Shown here piece after piece: positions 1 to 6,895 of a DNA stretch of 23,794 nt. Below the pieces are notes generated by a model, which was not told the origin of the DNA, ran no database searches, and was given only the letters and a program-made list of their open reading frames with translations. This stretch comes from an archaeon (GTDB lineage: Archaea > Methanobacteriota_B > Thermococci > Methanofastidiosales > NM3), in the NCBI GenBank assembly GCA_004212155.1, contig RXIG01000006.1, forward strand, positions 1 to 23,794. Direction: 5' to 3'. The position numbers were made by a program, and so were the translations under genes. How positions within the stretch are numbered: position 1 is the first letter of the stretch; each line of letters starts with the position of its first letter.

Positions 1-276
1 CATATCGGGGTCCTCATAGACCGTCGACTCGATCTCGATGATAGGGGTGAGTTCCTCTTCGCTTCGAGTCTGCATCGCGTTGAGCGTAAGACCGATGAAC
101 GTGAACTCGCGTATGCCGTAATCAACGAAAATCCATTGCAGAAGTTTTTTGAAAAGCAATGAAGTTGCATCGTACGCATCAATGTATGAACATCCCACTT
201 TCTCAGAATACATCCGTATTCCATGGGGTATGAGCAAAAAGTGAGTAAGAGGCGGCTTCGTTTCCCCTTCGTGCAT
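1..276 (-). CDS. Partial (runs off left edge) divergent cis-prenyltransferase / UppS-like protein
   Basis: Not in the ORF track. Hand translation from ATG at 276 is open to base 1: MHEGETKPPLTHFLLIPHGIRMYSEKVGCSYIDAYDATSLLFKKLLQWIFVDYGIREFTFIGLTLNAMQTRSEEELTPIIEIESTVYEDPDM. The pattern parallels the UppS N-terminus (H-hydrophobic-DGNRR ... GI.E.T....N..RS.EE). Confidence 0.6.
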   Translation of the reverse strand, partial: MHEGETKPPLTHFLLIPHGIRMYSEKVGCSYIDAYDATSLLFKKLLQWIFVDYGIREFTFIGLTLNAMQTRSEEELTPIIEIESTVYEDPDM

Positions 277-329
277 AGTAGTGATGATGATTACAACTTA
301 ATAAAGCTTTTTAGAAAAAGGAGGACCCA

Positions 330-350
330 CCCCTGTATTTCCACTGGAAC
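330..350 (-). promoter_or_regulatory. ORB element 1
   Basis: Reverse complement reads GTTCCAGTGGAAATACAGGGG followed by TGGG, matching the archaeal ORB consensus with G-string. Confidence 0.92.
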
Positions 351-483
351 TGATTTCAAAATCGATTAATAGAATCGATTGTTATAGTTTTCAAAATTCG
401 GTTCTGAAATGATATCAATTTTCTACTATAAATAACTTTTGATTTCAGTTTTGAAGCGAAGCGCGTTGGCACGATTGCCGTGC

Positions 484-510
484 ACTCCACACGAAACGAA
501 GGGGTAGGGT
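484..510 (+). promoter_or_regulatory. ORB element 2 (divergent core)
   Basis: ACTCCACACGAAACGAAGGGGTAGGGT keeps TCCA-nnn-GAAAC plus an extended G-string. Confidence 0.8.
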
Positions 511-559
511 GTTTTCTAACTTATTCAATAAATATTATAATATCTTAATTTAAGTTAAA

Positions 560-580
560 TCTCCAGTGGAAACAAAGGGG
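560..580 (+). promoter_or_regulatory. ORB element 3
   Basis: TCTCCAGTGGAAACAAAGGGG, near-perfect ORB consensus. Confidence 0.93.
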
Positions 581-589
581 ATGCCCAAA

Positions 590-597
590 TATATAAA
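590..597 (+). promoter_or_regulatory. Candidate TATA box of the cdc6-polD operon
   Basis: TATATAAA about 35 nt upstream of the ATG at 632. Confidence 0.5.
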
Positions 598-604
598 AAG
601 GACC

Positions 605-618
605 GTTTCTACTGGAAC
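605..618 (-). promoter_or_regulatory. mini-ORB
   Basis: Reverse complement GTTCCAGTAGAAAC: ORB core with one mismatch and no G-string. Confidence 0.75.
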
Positions 619-631
619 AGTGGGTGCCATA

Positions 632-1939
632 ATGAACGATCAGAAGAGTCTAGATAGCCTATTCGACAAACTGCTTACCAATGAACAGATCTTTACCAAC
701 AAGGAAGTGCTGCGTCATTCATACACACCAGATGAACTGCCTCACAGACAGAACCAGGTGGAGACCCTCGCATCGGTGCTCGTATCTGTGTTTCGAGGGG
801 AAACGCCTTCAAATCTGTTCGTTTATGGCAAGACCGGGACGGGAAAGACGGCCGTCGTCAAACACGTCGGCAAGGCCCTTGTGAGAAAGATTGGGGGCAA
901 CTTCTTTGCAAAGCCGTTTCACAGCACGAGGACCGTGCCTGACTTCGTGTCGACCATTACCACGCACAAATGCCCCGTATGGTTCATCTACATGAACTGC
1001 GAGGTTGTCGACACGCAGTATCGCCTGCTTGCAAAGCTGGGAGAGTACTTCGGACAGACGATTCCCCTGACGGGATGGCCGACCGACAAGGTCTATGATA
1101 CTTTTTTCTCGACGCTTGACATGGAGGAGCGTCTTGTAATTATCGTTCTTGATGAAATCGACCGGTTGCTGCGAAAGGGAAGCGACGAGGTGCTCTACAA
1201 CCTGACGAGGATCAACTCGGACCTTTCGAACGCGAAGGTGAGTGTCATAGGGATTACCAACGACCTCAACTTCATCGAGTTCCTCGATCCCCGCGTGCGA
1301 AGTTCGCTGGGCGAGGAGGAGATCGTGTTCCCCCCTTATGATGCCATACAGATTCAGGACATCCTGTCGCAGCGCGCGAAGATGTCGTGCAGGTCGCTTG
1401 ATGTTATCGATGCGGGCGTGATACCGCTGTGCTCTGCGTTTGCAGCCCAGGAGCACGGCGATGCGAGACGCGCGCTCGACCTCTTCCGCGTGGCGGGAGA
1501 GTTGGCGGAACGAGAACGAAGCAAACGCATCGTCGAACGCCATGTGCGCGAGGCCAAGGAGCGCATCGAGCAGGACCGGATCGTCGAGGTGGTAAAGACC
1601 CTGCCGACCCAGTCGAAGCTCATACTCTATTCATGTATATTATTGGAGAAGTACGAGCCGTCGGGCATATCAACGGGTGAGGTCTACAACGTCTACCGCG
1701 ACCTGTGCAAGCTCTCCGCCAGCGAGGTGCTCACACAGCGCAGGATCTCTGATATCATCTCCGAGCTCGACATGCTCGGCATCGTCAACGCCCGCGTCGT
1801 CAGCAAGGGGCGCTACGGGCGCACGAAGGAGATTCACATGGGAGTCCCCGTGACGCAGGTCAAGCGCGTCCTGGAGCAGGACAGGAAGATCGAGCGGGTC
1901 ACGACCTACGTGCCACCCATACAGCATAGGCTATCGTGA
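632..1939 (+). CDS. cdc6: Orc1/Cdc6 replication initiator
   Basis: YTPDELPHR, Walker A GKTGTGKT, Walker B IVLDEID, sensor GDARRALD, C-terminal winged helix with SKGRYGRT. Start moved from 566 to ATG 632 because the upstream part is made of ORB sequences. Confidence 0.97.
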   Translation: MNDQKSLDSLFDKLLTNEQIFTNKEVLRHSYTPDELPHRQNQVETLASVLVSVFRGETPSNLFVYGKTGTGKTAVVKHVGKALVRKIGGNFFAKPFHSTRTVPDFVSTITTHKCPVWFIYMNCEVVDTQYRLLAKLGEYFGQTIPLTGWPTDKVYDTFFSTLDMEERLVIIVLDEIDRLLRKGSDEVLYNLTRINSDLSNAKVSVIGITNDLNFIEFLDPRVRSSLGEEEIVFPPYDAIQIQDILSQRAKMSCRSLDVIDAGVIPLCSAFAAQEHGDARRALDLFRVAGELAERERSKRIVERHVREAKERIEQDRIVEVVKTLPTQSKLILYSCILLEKYEPSGISTGEVYNVYRDLCKLSASEVLTQRRISDIISELDMLGIVNARVVSKGRYGRTKEIHMGVPVTQVKRVLEQDRKIERVTTYVPPIQHRLS

Positions 1940-1947
1940 GGGTCCGC

Positions 1948-3504
1948 ATGCAATCTGCAAGCCCAGAGCAGGTATCCATTCCAAAGCTCTTCCTAGAGCG
2001 CGGCATCATCCTCACCGAGGAGGCGTATGCCAAGTTCCTCGGCGATGCAGTGGACATGGACAGCATCAGCGAGTTCCTCGACCAGCTCGAGGGCACGGAC
2101 AAGGCGTTTGTCACAAAGGATGATTACGAGGATTACTTCTACCCCCGATTCGAAGGCAACGGCGACAGGGGATCAAGCGACGAGAGCTCGTCCAGTCTCC
2201 AGTGGAAACAAAGGGGTAACGCGCCGCAAGAGTCCCATGCATCAAAACACTTTCCTGCCAAGGACGTAGCACCCGATATACGTATCATAACAGACGTTGC
2301 TGGCAAGGGCGAGTCCGAAGGGACGTTTGAGGACTTCTACTCCCTTTTCTCCGACAGGTACAGGAAGCTCTCGCGCATCTTCAAGGAACATGCCGAGTTT
2401 CGAAACTATACGTCGATCAAGGATGCCAAGCGCATGGAGCTCAAGTCCAACGTGACCGTTGTCGGCATGGTGCAGGACAAGTCGTATACGAAGAACAACA
2501 ATCTCATGCTCGAGATCGAGGACATGAGCGGGCATATCAAGGCTTTGGTGTCGTTCAACAAGGAGCGGCTCATGGAGCGCGCAAAGTACATCGTCCGCGA
2601 CGAGATCATCGCGTTCTCCGGTGCGCTCGGCGAGGACATCATATTCGTCAACGACTTCGCGTTCCCCGACATCGCCGTGGGGCGTCAGCGCAATCAGTCG
2701 CCCGATGACGTCAACGCCATCTTCACATCCGACATCCACGTGGGCAGCAACGAGTTCGTCGACAAGGCGTTCCTTCGCTTCATCAAGTGGCTGCGCCAGG
2801 AGAAGGGCAACAGCCGCCAGCAGGAACTTGCATCCAAGGTGAAGTACCTTGTCGTGTGCGGCGACGTTGTCGACGGTGTTGGCATCTACCCGAATCAGCA
2901 AAAGGAGCTTTCCATAACCGATATTTATGATCAATACAAGAAGACGGCGGAGCTGCTCGCCTACGTCCCAGACTGGATCGAGATCATCGTCTCGCCCGGC
3001 AATCACGACGCGACGCGAAGTGGAAATCCGCAATTCCCCATCCCCGAGGCGTTCGCCCATGAGCTCTACGAGATGGACAATGTCCACATGGTGTCGAATC
3101 CGTCGTTTTTCTCGCTTCACGGCGTCAAGTGCCTCGCTTATCACGGAGACTCCATATTCGACTTCCTCTCACAGGTCCCGGGTTTCCACCTGGACGACCC
3201 TATCGCTCCCATGACCGAGATGCTCCGCAAGCGCCATCTCGCGCCCGTCTATGGCATGGGCACGCAGATCGTCCCCGAACCGAAGGACTATCTTTGCATC
3301 GACGAGCCACCCGACATCTTCCAGACCGGCCACACCCACATGAACGGGAACGGGTCGTATCGCGGCACGACACTCATCAACTCGGGCGGATGGCAGGCCC
3401 AGACATCGTTCCAGAAGATGCGAAACATCACGCCCGATGTCGCCAAGGTCCCGATCATGAATCTGCACGACCACAAGCTGGTCGTCATGAACTTCGGTGA
3501 TTGA
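1948..3504 (+). CDS. polB: DNA polymerase D small (proofreading exonuclease) subunit DP1
   Basis: OB fold plus calcineurin-like phosphoesterase motifs SDIHVG, GDVVDG, PGNHD, HGDS, GHTH. ATG 1948 follows GAGGGT; GTG 1936 is an alternative start. Confidence 0.96.
   Translation: MQSASPEQVSIPKLFLERGIILTEEAYAKFLGDAVDMDSISEFLDQLEGTDKAFVTKDDYEDYFYPRFEGNGDRGSSDESSSSLQWKQRGNAPQESHASKHFPAKDVAPDIRIITDVAGKGESEGTFEDFYSLFSDRYRKLSRIFKEHAEFRNYTSIKDAKRMELKSNVTVVGMVQDKSYTKNNNLMLEIEDMSGHIKALVSFNKERLMERAKYIVRDEIIAFSGALGEDIIFVNDFAFPDIAVGRQRNQSPDDVNAIFTSDIHVGSNEFVDKAFLRFIKWLRQEKGNSRQQELASKVKYLVVCGDVVDGVGIYPNQQKELSITDIYDQYKKTAELLAYVPDWIEIIVSPGNHDATRSGNPQFPIPEAFAHELYEMDNVHMVSNPSFFSLHGVKCLAYHGDSIFDFLSQVPGFHLDDPIAPMTEMLRKRHLAPVYGMGTQIVPEPKDYLCIDEPPDIFQTGHTHMNGNGSYRGTTLINSGGWQAQTSFQKMRNITPDVAKVPIMNLHDHKLVVMNFGD
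2196..2216 (+). promoter_or_regulatory. Intragenic ORB inside DP1
   Basis: TCTCCAGTGGAAACAAAGGGG, identical over 21 nt to 560-580. Confidence 0.85.
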
Positions 3505-3505
3505 C

Positions 3506-6500
3506 ATGGCATCAGAATACGAATCATACTTCTCGCTCCTCGAGCACGAGGCGGACTTGGTCTATCAGCTCGCCAAGCGGGCGCGCGAGCGGGGCCTTGA
3601 CCCGTCGTTTGACGTCGAGGTGCCCCGCGCCAAGGACATGGCAAGCCGCGTCGAGAGCTTGGTGGGGCCACCTGGCGTCGCCGAGCTCATCAGGAAGCTC
3701 GACAAGAGCGGCCTGCAGCGCGAGGTCGTCTCGCTCAAGGTGGCCGAACGCATCTGCCACGGTGACTTCGGGGAGATGTCTATTGAGGAATCGGCCGAAC
3801 AGGCCGTTCGCACCTCGCTTGCCATACTTACCGAGGGCATCGTGTCGGCGCCGCTCGAGGGCATCGCAAGCATCAAGGTCAAGCACAATCCCGACGGCAC
3901 GAAGTACCTTGCCATCTACTTTGCGGGACCCATACGTTCCGCTGGCGGCACGGCTGCCGCCATGGCCGTGCTCATCACCGATTACGTCAGGCAAAAGCTC
4001 CATCTCGACGGCTACAAGGTCATGGCCGACGAGATCGAGCGGTTCTACGAGGAAGTGCAGCTCTACGACCGCAACGTACGTCTCCAGTACAAGCCTTCAT
4101 ACGAGGATGTCAAGGCGGCCCTCGAGCACATCACCGTCGAGGTCACGGGCGAGACCACCGACAAGATCGAGGTAACGGGATACCGCGACCTCGAGCGCAT
4201 CGAGACCAACTGCCTGCGCGGCGGTGCCATGCTCGCACTGTGCGAGGGCGTGCTCCAGAAGGCCTCAAAGATCCTTAAGATCACCGACAAGGCATCCATT
4301 GGGGGATGGGAGTGGCTCAAGGACGTCGGCAAGAGCAAGAAGTCGGCGAAGGAGGGCTCCGGCGAGATCGCACCCAACTGGAAGTACCTAAACGACATCA
4401 TCGCGGGAAGGCCCATCTTCTCGCATCCGATGGCGCGCGGCGGATTTCGCATACGCTACGGGCGTTCCAGGAACACGGGGCTTGCGGGATGGGGCATCCA
4501 CCCCGCCACGATGTACGTGCTCGACTCGTTCCTTGCCATCGGCACGCAGATGAAGACGGAGCGTCCGGGCAAGGCCAACGTCACGGCGCCCGTCGACTCC
4601 GTCGAGGGGCCCATCGTCAAGCTTCGCGACGGGACGGTCATGCGGGTCGAGTCGTCCGACCAGGCCAAGGAGATCAACGACAAGATCGATGAGATCCTCT
4701 TCCTCGGCGATGCCGTCATTGGCGTCGGCGAGTTCCTCGAGAACAACCACGTGCTTCTTCCTTCGGGGTACGTCGAGGAGTGGTGGGTGCAGGAGCTCGA
4801 GGCGGCCGATACGAAAGGCGAGTTTTCCCGCTACGTCGAAAATCCCTTTGACATCGGCGAGCGCGATGCGCTTGCCATCTCGCGCTCGTGCGGCATACCG
4901 CTCCATCCGCGATTCACCTACCACTGGGGAGACATCGATCTCGAGGAGTTGAAGGACCTGGTCGAATGGTGCAGCGAGGGTCGTATTGAGGACGGAAGGC
5001 TCGTGCTAAGGCGCGACGATCGAAAGCGCCTGCTCGAGCGCATCTGCGTGCCGCATGCCGTGAGCGGTGACACGATCTCGATCGCGTCCGAGACGTTCCG
5101 GCTTTGTGTGGACAAGGAACGCTTCGATGACGTCATCCCGCTCATATCGCCTGAAGGCAAGGGGGAGCAGGAGCTCGTCCATGAGACGGTGGGAAAGGTC
5201 CTTGGCATCGCGGTGCGGCCGAAGTGCCCCGTCACCGTCGGCGGGCGCATGGGCAGGCCGGAGAAGGCCAAGGAGCGCACCATGTCGCCGCCCGTGCACG
5301 GCCTCTTCCCCGTCGGTCCGTCGGGCGGAAAGACGCGTTCGCTCGTCAAGGCGATGGACAACAACTACCTGCGCGTCGAGGTGGCAAACAGGTATTGCCG
5401 CCAGTGCAACACGGTGCACTACACCGCGCTTTGCCCCACCTGCAAGGAGCCGACGATACCGTATGCCGTATGCAACAACAAGCGATGCAAGATGGCCAAC
5501 AACAAGACGTTTGAAGTCAGTTCGGAAACATGCCCCGGCTGTCGGGGCAGGCTCTCCAAGTACTCGTACAAGAACATCGACATACGCTCCGAGATGCAGG
5601 GGGCCATCGAGCGCATGGGCATCGATATGCCAAAGGAGGTCAAGGGCGTCATCGGCATGACGTCTGAGGAGAAGTTCCCCGAACGCGTCGACAAGGCGAT
5701 CCTTCGCGCCCGCAACGGGGTCTATGTCTTCAAGGACGGCACGATGCGCTACGATGCCACCGACGTTCCCCTCACCCATGTGCAACCTCGCGAGATCAAC
5801 ACGTCGGTCGACCGCATGCACGAGCTCGGTTACCTCCACGATGCCGACGGAAGGAAGCTCACGTCGCCTGACCAGGTGGTCGAGCTAAGGGTGCAGGACA
5901 TCGTGCTTGCCGACACGGCCGCAGACTACATCCTTCGGTGCTGCACGTTCCTTGATGAGCTGCTCGAGAAGTTCTACGGACTGCCGGCGTTTTACAATGC
6001 GAAGGAGCCCGACGATCTCGTTGGGCACCTCGTCATCGGCCTTGCCCCACACACGTCGGCCGGCGTGCTCGGGCGCATCATCGGGTATACGAAGGCTCGC
6101 GTCGGATACGCTCACCCGTTCTTCCACGCGGCCAAGCGACGGAACTGCGATGGGGACGAGGATGCGATTCTCCTCCTGCTCGACGCGCTGCTCAACTTCT
6201 CAAGGCGATTCCTTCCGGCCAATCGCGGCGGCAAGATGGATGCTCCGCTTGTCATGACGACACGCATCGACCCGCTCGAGATCGACAAGGAGGCGCACAA
6301 CCTCGACACGTCGAGGCGCTACCCCCTGACGTTCTACCAGAAGACCCAGGAGTATGCGCATCCGTCAGAGCTTGGCATCCCCACTGTCGCGGACAGGCTC
6401 GGCACCGAGGAGGCGCTCTGGCACCTCGACTACAGCCTTCCCACGCGTGACATCGCCGACGGCCCCGAGGCCTCGGCCTACAAGACGCTCGGCTCGATGT

Positions 6501-6895
6501 CGGAAAAGATTGAGGCGCAGCTCGAGATCGCGCGCAAGGTGCGCGCCGTCGACCTCGATGACACGGCCCAGCGCGTCATCATCTCACACTTCATCCCGGA
6601 CCTCATCGGCAATCTGCGCTCGTTTTCCAAGCAGACGTTTCGCTGTGTGAACTGCAACGCCATCTATCGGCGCGTGCCGCTTTCGGGCAAGTGCACGAAG
6701 TGCTACGGCGGCCGGCTCGTGCTCACCGTCTCCAAGGGATCGGTGGAAAAGTACCTGCAGGTGACAAAGGACATCATCCGCAACTACGAGATCGACCCCT
6801 ATATCTCCCAGCGCATCGCCATCATCGAAAAGGAGCTTGAATCGGTCTTCCGGGAGAAGACGAAACAGATGAGCCTCGCGGACTTTGCTCCTTAG
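3506..6895 (+). CDS. polC: DNA polymerase D large subunit DP2
   Basis: AGPIRSAGGT, GFRIRYGRSRNTG, GRMGRPEKAKER, catalytic RRNCDGDED, Cys zinc fingers, C-terminal PIP-like QMSLADF. ATG 3506 follows GGTGA. No intein. Confidence 0.98.
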   Translation: MASEYESYFSLLEHEADLVYQLAKRARERGLDPSFDVEVPRAKDMASRVESLVGPPGVAELIRKLDKSGLQREVVSLKVAERICHGDFGEMSIEESAEQAVRTSLAILTEGIVSAPLEGIASIKVKHNPDGTKYLAIYFAGPIRSAGGTAAAMAVLITDYVRQKLHLDGYKVMADEIERFYEEVQLYDRNVRLQYKPSYEDVKAALEHITVEVTGETTDKIEVTGYRDLERIETNCLRGGAMLALCEGVLQKASKILKITDKASIGGWEWLKDVGKSKKSAKEGSGEIAPNWKYLNDIIAGRPIFSHPMARGGFRIRYGRSRNTGLAGWGIHPATMYVLDSFLAIGTQMKTERPGKANVTAPVDSVEGPIVKLRDGTVMRVESSDQAKEINDKIDEILFLGDAVIGVGEFLENNHVLLPSGYVEEWWVQELEAADTKGEFSRYVENPFDIGERDALAISRSCGIPLHPRFTYHWGDIDLEELKDLVEWCSEGRIEDGRLVLRRDDRKRLLERICVPHAVSGDTISIASETFRLCVDKERFDDVIPLISPEGKGEQELVHETVGKVLGIAVRPKCPVTVGGRMGRPEKAKERTMSPPVHGLFPVGPSGGKTRSLVKAMDNNYLRVEVANRYCRQCNTVHYTALCPTCKEPTIPYAVCNNKRCKMANNKTFEVSSETCPGCRGRLSKYSYKNIDIRSEMQGAIERMGIDMPKEVKGVIGMTSEEKFPERVDKAILRARNGVYVFKDGTMRYDATDVPLTHVQPREINTSVDRMHELGYLHDADGRKLTSPDQVVELRVQDIVLADTAADYILRCCTFLDELLEKFYGLPAFYNAKEPDDLVGHLVIGLAPHTSAGVLGRIIGYTKARVGYAHPFFHAAKRRNCDGDEDAILLLLDALLNFSRRFLPANRGGKMDAPLVMTTRIDPLEIDKEAHNLDTSRRYPLTFYQKTQEYAHPSELGIPTVADRLGTEEALWHLDYSLPTRDIADGPEASAYKTLGSMSEKIEAQLEIARKVRAVDLDDTAQRVIISHFIPDLIGNLRSFSKQTFRCVNCNAIYRRVPLSGKCTKCYGGRLVLTVSKGSVEKYLQVTKDIIRNYEIDPYISQRIAIIEKELESVFREKTKQMSLADFAP

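Follow-up and report, generated by a model that had tools for sequence, protein, structure and literature searches.

The window, that is, the whole stretch of 23,794 nucleotides that was analysed, belongs to a Methanofastidiosales MAG (G000) of 1.49 Mb in 28 contigs, with 55% GC and a completeness of ~90%. The names carried by its nearest database proteins likewise point to Methanofastidiosa. It begins with the gene order oriC-cdc6-dp1-dp2, the genes being assigned by Pfam. The initiator gene, cdc6/orc1 (632-1939, plus strand), encodes 435 aa carrying Cdc6_C, Cdc6_lid and AAA domains. It is followed on the same strand by dp1 (1948-3504), which encodes the 518-aa small subunit of DNA polymerase D (PolD), and by dp2 (3506-6895), which encodes the large subunit. 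Since dp1 starts 8 nt past the cdc6 stop, cdc6 and dp1 are probably co-transcribed, an operon being suggested by this spacing. Upstream of the origin lies an open-ended ORF on the minus strand (1-276, 92 aa) without a Pfam match. A second, distant Orc1/Cdc6 paralog is encoded at C1:32917-34002 (minus strand), where a single 384-aa frame matches in two segments, at ~25-34% identity. No RNA family was detected by Rfam in positions 1-4000 at E up to 1.

Origin-recognition boxes (ORBs) consist of a dyad-symmetric core plus a downstream G-string, and are found as boxes flanking an AT-rich region beside cdc6. At the start of the window, ORB1 (330-348, minus strand) is a full box in which a perfect 11-nt core is followed by TACAGGGG; its dyad core points toward the AT-rich region and its G-string is distal. 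ORB3 (560-580, plus strand) is a perfect box situated directly 5' of a TATA-like run (~587-600), the putative cdc6 promoter, and of the cdc6 start. Between the inverted ORB1 and ORB2/ORB3 lies a putative AT-rich unwinding element (351-480), a role proposed from the canonical archaeal origin layout, and GC content is 23% at 351-450 versus 55% genome-wide. Inverted full boxes (ORB1 on the minus and ORB3 on the plus strand) enclosing an AT-rich stretch make up a canonical archaeal origin. Two weaker boxes accompany them. ORB2 (484-504, plus strand), 76 nt upstream of ORB3 and 76% identical to it, is degenerate, and a mini-ORB (606-616, minus strand) consists of a core with one mismatch and no G-string. 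The ORB2 core is broken in the host; two relatives (L010 and L013) retain two good tandem boxes 75 nt apart before cdc6. A box equivalent to ORB3 is present 5' of cdc6 at 8 of the 29 relatives' loci, counted where the flank reaches that far.

A further full consensus ORB, in its 23-nt extended form, lies inside the dp1 coding sequence (2196-2218, plus strand, codons 83-91). It points the same way as ORB3, and the two are 1636 nt apart, start to start. The first-pass annotation of this DNA had described 2196-2216 as an exact repeat of ORB3, and sequence comparison and a pattern search agree, with 0 mismatches over the 21 nt and both copies on the plus strand. Its chance estimate of ~1e-8 is of the correct order of magnitude (2 x 23794 / 4^21), and two such 21-mer matches were obtained in none of 100 dinucleotide-preserving shuffles of the window. 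The dp1 box fits the sequence definition of an ORB, with core plus NANAGGGG present. The additional TCCAGT that had been pointed out before the box is indeed there, at 2191-2196, abutting it. The DNA on either side has 50-58% GC and contains no AT-rich stretch. Core-like matches number 13 window-wide versus 5.3 expected; the only other one in dp1, at 2046-2056 with 2 mismatches, is within chance expectation.

Within DP1 the box falls in the linker that connects the N-terminal domain with the OB fold, as originally placed; Pfam gives aa 169-229 for the OB fold and aa 258-465 for the phosphoesterase domain. In an alignment of 30 DP1 proteins the least alignable stretch is ~aa 67-100, with indels exactly at the box site, where the DP1 of two family members has an 11-residue gap. 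Codon 83 ends with T2196, and the seven codons that follow, 84-90 (CTC CAG TGG AAA CAA AGG GGT), read L-Q-W-K-Q-R-G. That these codons are unusual was also correctly remarked. From genome codon usage, compiled from 701 long ORFs with 314,667 codons, AAA accounts for 19% of Lys, CAA for 24% of Gln, AGG for 16% of Arg and GGT for 16% of Gly codons, and the preceding AGT for 4% of Ser codons. Within dp1, which has a GC3 of 78%, AAA serves for 2 of the 32 Lys codons. The probability of drawing the box-spelling codons for LQWKQRG under genome usage is ~0.0026 (0.47 x 0.76 x 0.19 x 0.24 x 0.16). A run of minor codons as improbable as this argues that the DNA, rather than the peptide, accounts for the identity of the box.

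Short repeats can mislead assemblers, and in a MAG of 28 contigs a chimeric join could have put the box into dp1. Misassembly had been listed beforehand among the findings that would refute the proposal. It is contradicted by Logan contigs assembled independently from 4 runs, each of a different study, which bridge the box at ~96%, 95%, 86% and 86% identity and extend hundreds of bases beyond it in both directions. They derive from oil-field, crude-oil, subsurface and sediment metagenomes. The bridged intervals are 1808-3011 (X4), 1128-2999 (X6), 1633-3342 (X1) and 1625-2620 (X2). Among the indels listed for these contigs none is within the dp1 box, the nearest being at 2183-2187 and 2240-2244. 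The encoded peptide is also present in an independently assembled JGI protein, and the dp1 reading frame is intact. An assembly artefact is, on these grounds, extremely improbable. Two apparent joints, 349>2196 and 2217>3382, were considered as rearrangements and rejected; their sides are only 23 and 20 letters long, and they were taken as unrelated ORB-bearing contigs.

In the 1.49 Mb host genome the 11-nt core occurs in 6 copies, every one of them a full ORB in which the core is followed by NANAGGG(G/C). Two of the copies belong to oriC and one to dp1; the other three stand singly between genes on other contigs. Besides its 21-nt identity to ORB3, the dp1 box is identical over 21 nt to two lone ORBs, and its 5' flank matches that of ORB3 and its 3' flank those of the lone boxes. 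The 23-mer 2196-2218 agrees in full with the extended family consensus, both flanks included. It is unique in the host genome and is identical to lone ORBs in two related genomes. As the 23-mer is the family consensus and is found at no other resident site, the dp1 box is not a plain copy of any one of them.

Distribution among relatives was assessed by a DP1 search of 41 genomes including the host, 40 of which gave a DP1 match; 30 loci were compared. The 29 other loci are all from Methanofastidiosales; five of them, the congener G002 among these, come from the host's family and show 64-69% protein identity. The dp1 box is present in none of these 29 dp1 loci, even at 3 or fewer mismatches of 17 specified positions, and the 11-nt core with at most one mismatch is likewise found inside dp1 at none of them. 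Another congener, G001 (77% complete), is without the region, an absence made uninformative by its incompleteness. Scans of metagenomes and genome contigs returned only DP1s of 35-45% identity, none with the core in dp1 within 1 mismatch. The first-pass annotation had held that its proposal would be refuted if relatives lack the box, and lack it they do, at all 29 loci. The dp1 box is consequently lineage-specific, and origin function in the order does not depend on it. Among the genomes examined, it is seen, by these sequence searches, to be confined to one shallow lineage.

This distribution is also what would be expected of a neutral passenger, an ORB segment that got into an indel-prone linker by ectopic copying, template switching or slippage close to the origin and is retained because a disordered linker tolerates nearly any peptide; Orc1 might bind it, without selected consequence. 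The linker is hypervariable in both sequence and length, to the point of the 11-residue gap described above, and the abutting TCCAGT forms a direct repeat compatible with slippage. Minor codons would be expected equally of recently imported non-coding DNA. A single resident donor is, however, hard to reconcile with the two flanks of the box, which together match the 23-nt consensus, unlike any single resident copy. A mobile-element source is also without support, the 19-mer having 0 exact matches in viral contigs.

The fate of the encoded peptide also speaks against a neutral passenger. The closest DP1 found, P0002 from JGI metagenomes, is 92.5% identical over 518 aa, with 39 differences. Seven of these fall in the ten residues just before the box (aa 74-83), the densest patch of change between P0002 and the host DP1. 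This patch abuts aa 84-93 (LQWKQRGNAP), in which there are none. For 7 residues at the local substitution density of 35%, an unchanged run is mildly improbable (~0.05). The peptide has stayed intact in a lineage ~14% diverged in nucleotides, and an unchanged LQWKQRGNAP beside a scrambled linker is suggestive of constraint, at the level of the peptide. Together with the Thermococcales described below, in whose DP1 linker ORBs probably arose independently and are both conserved and bound (PMC1904270), these observations leave the neutral reading rather unlikely.

Single ORBs outside oriC are a feature of the family as well as of the host. When seven family genomes were scanned, 21 boxes with no more than one mismatch turned up, against 0 for a reversed-pattern control. 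The 15 boxes in the six other genomes comprise five at oriC, four orthologous to the host box at an Ogg-type site, four orthologous to the host box at an acetyltransferase-like site, and two unassigned. In the host, the lone ORB at C10:50010-50028 (L003:1501-1519) lies between the end of a glycosyltransferase gene and the start of a gene for an Ogg-type 8-oxoguanine DNA glycosylase, and sits between a TATA-like element and the glycosylase gene start. Its orthologs in L057, L058, L056 and L065 bring this site to 5 of 7 family genomes (G000 included) in three genera. The lone ORB at C15:181015-181033 (L004:1501-1519), directly followed by a TATA-like run, lies in G000 in the gap where an ARMT1-like phosphatase gene and an aminoglycoside 3-N-acetyltransferase-like gene converge, and could drive a small or antisense transcript. 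Orthologs of this site (L062, L060, L061 and L064) again give 5 of 7 family genomes, counting G000, and the box plus GTAT is invariant in all 5. The acetyltransferase-like flank is shared by all four orthologs, and the phosphatase flank was matched in G001 only. The third lone ORB, at C1:77936-77954 (L005:1501-1519), has one G-string mismatch and is flanked by a fumarate hydratase gene and a uroporphyrinogen methyltransferase/synthase gene in divergent orientation; no ortholog of it was found at one mismatch or fewer in the family genomes scanned.

In 140-nt alignments at both orthologous sites the box is the only conserved block, and the flanking proteins are 42-55% identical between genera. 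Single ORBs persist as islands of identity, in intergenic DNA that cannot otherwise be aligned, at two orthologous non-origin sites, which shows that in this family a lone ORB is under selection as a unit. Judging from its position, the Ogg-type box may reflect Orc1 acting as a repair-gene regulator. The lone ORBs of the family contrast with P. abyssi, for which practically no Cdc6 site other than oriC was reported, and suggest that use of the initiator outside the origin differs between Methanofastidiosales and Thermococcales.

Regulation of this kind could also be the main function of the dp1 box. Orc1 bound there would be a roadblock or attenuator in the cdc6-dp1-dp2 transcript, such that high occupancy lowers PolD, with no role at the origin. 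The box is inside the probable operon, ~1.6 kb from the cdc6 promoter, and the lone ORB at the Ogg-type glycosylase gene suggests that Orc1 also regulates genes. On the other hand, neither a TATA-like element nor a terminator feature lies beside the dp1 box, and the literature search found no experimental precedent for Orc1 roadblocking. A mainly transcriptional role is considered quite improbable.

ORBs inside dp1 have been described before, and the novelty implied by the first-pass annotation is not supported. ORB and mini-ORB repeats inside Pyrococcus and Thermococcus dp1, ~1.5 kb from oriC and bracketing cdc6, were published in 2007 (Matsunaga 2007, PMC1904270). The same report describes the dp1 cluster as kept in three Pyrococcus genomes and in T. 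kodakarensis, places P. abyssi Cdc6 on both clusters, oriC and dp1, by ChIP, and gives a gel-shift of a single dp1 ORB by P. furiosus Cdc6 at ~240 nM (PMC1904270). Matsunaga 2007 proposed that the dp1 cluster takes part in initiation, possibly through looping, by analogy to the B. subtilis dnaA gene flanked by DnaA boxes (PMC1904270). A literature search, partly at title/abstract level, returned nothing on origins or dp1 boxes in Methanofastidiosa.

The Thermococcaceae pattern was checked in six of seven genomes (G039 was left out). Perfect cores are present in the dp1 linker in all six, at 2-4 each and 16 in total, spread over aa 76-204, upstream of the part of DP1 alignable to the DP1 of the window. 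All but one of the 16 run antisense to dp1, and these 15 appear in the protein as (I/V/F)STG repeats. In these linkers (L069-L074, aa 76-204) the antisense cores encode a repeated (E/G)S(F/Y)(I/V)STG, from which it follows that the repeat structure of the Thermococcaceae linker is a by-product of the DNA boxes. The host box uses the other strand and another reading frame, is present as a single copy, and is absent from the other Methanofastidiosales examined; on these sequence features it is probably an independent gain, not inherited from a common ancestor with Thermococcales. Use of the same address twice, a tolerant linker past cdc6, is the best argument for selection on the site. An independent, minimal version of the dp1 ORBs in a sister order, a single perfect box in another orientation, would narrow the requirements of the feature. 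The factors shared by the two cases are position (past cdc6, in a tolerant linker) and a full ORB, and not a cluster or a given strand.

Taken together, the data favour, as reasonably probable, a dp1 box that is a selected Orc1/Cdc6 site tuning the origin or the supply of initiator. The stretch 2196-2218 would be bound with high affinity by the origin-linked Orc1/Cdc6, at a site embedded in the codons of a disordered DP1 linker, and with the oriC boxes it would bracket the initiator gene, as the Thermococcales dp1 cluster does. Binding of Orc1 is to be expected whatever the role, because the box is identical to ORB3 and a single ORB is sufficient in vitro in Pyrococcus. Going by established Orc1-ORB structures, the dp1 box would be occupied by one Orc1 monomer, its winged helix contacting the dyad core TCCAGTGGA and the AAA+ initiator-specific motif facing the G-string. 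The earlier proposal of dual-coding DNA kept for Cdc6 survives in part: the consensus ORB, the minor codons, the P0002 peptide and the binding in Thermococcales speak for it, and the lack of the box in relatives speaks against it.

With no AT-rich region beside it, the dp1 box cannot fire alone as an origin. Its most likely role would be that of an auxiliary initiator site near oriC, which may tune initiation by holding Orc1 in cis. Bridging of the dp1 box to ORB3 is possible, and transcription reading through from cdc6 into the polD genes might be affected as a by-product. Titration in cis is the most likely sub-mechanism, since no other has genetic support in any organism; for titration this comes from the ORB cluster downstream of cdc6E in Haloarcula hispanica. 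Both looping into a bipartite origin and datA-like titration, which the first-pass annotation put forward, are retained here as ideas already proposed in print (PMC1904270; PMC3936714) and not as new ones.

A wider reading, unlikely as a whole, is that an Orc1 site in the DP1 linker arose at least twice, on opposite strands and in different frames, with selection favouring it, and that through this site and the lone ORBs Orc1 couples its occupancy to the expression of replication and repair genes. If so, the origin-linked Orc1 of the family would be a site-specific regulator, beyond its part as an origin marker.

Among known systems, there is a likeness to the DnaA boxes at B. subtilis dnaA and to E. 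coli datA, analogies drawn in PMC1904270 and PMC3936714. The logic is analogous, in that extra sites near an origin or initiator gene give a bipartite origin or titration. However, DnaA is unrelated to Orc1/Cdc6, the bacterial loci are non-coding clusters, and the host box belongs to neither system.

Another parallel is oriC2D of Haloarcula hispanica, with 11 ORBs in a 722-bp intergenic region directly downstream of cdc6E (Wu 2014, PMC3936714). As reported there, these ORBs have no origin activity yet lower the activity of oriC2, as shown genetically, which Wu 2014 reads as datA-like titration of the initiator; ORBs are also described downstream of many other haloarchaeal ori-cdc6 pairs (PMC3936714). 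Both oriC2D and the present locus have boxes downstream of an origin-linked cdc6. They differ in that oriC2D has 11 intergenic boxes and the host one box within coding sequence, and the negative effect is shown genetically only for oriC2D. A titration locus is marked by high box density, and dp1 of the host contains a single box.

The closest counterpart is the Thermococcales dp1 cluster. In both cases the boxes are inside dp1, ~1.5-1.6 kb from oriC, with cdc6 bracketed between the two sets, in the gene order oriC-cdc6-dp1-dp2 and with the core TCCAGTGGAAA. They also occupy the DNA for the same linker, which joins the DP1 N-terminal domain to the OB/phosphoesterase part. The initiators are orthologous; compared along the whole protein, host Cdc6 and the oriC-linked Cdc6 proteins from the six Thermococcaceae genomes share 54-58% identity. 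The differences concern number, strand and the kind of evidence. Here there is one full box with its G-string, as against a cluster of 2-4 perfect cores in Thermococcaceae, and it is read on the sense strand as LQWKQRG, whereas 15 of the 16 Thermococcaceae cores are antisense and read as xSTG. Cdc6 binding has been demonstrated for the Thermococcales dp1 boxes and is predicted for the host box. Judged by its sequence and placement, the dp1 box of the window is a further example of a known arrangement, in which initiator boxes within dp1 bracket cdc6.
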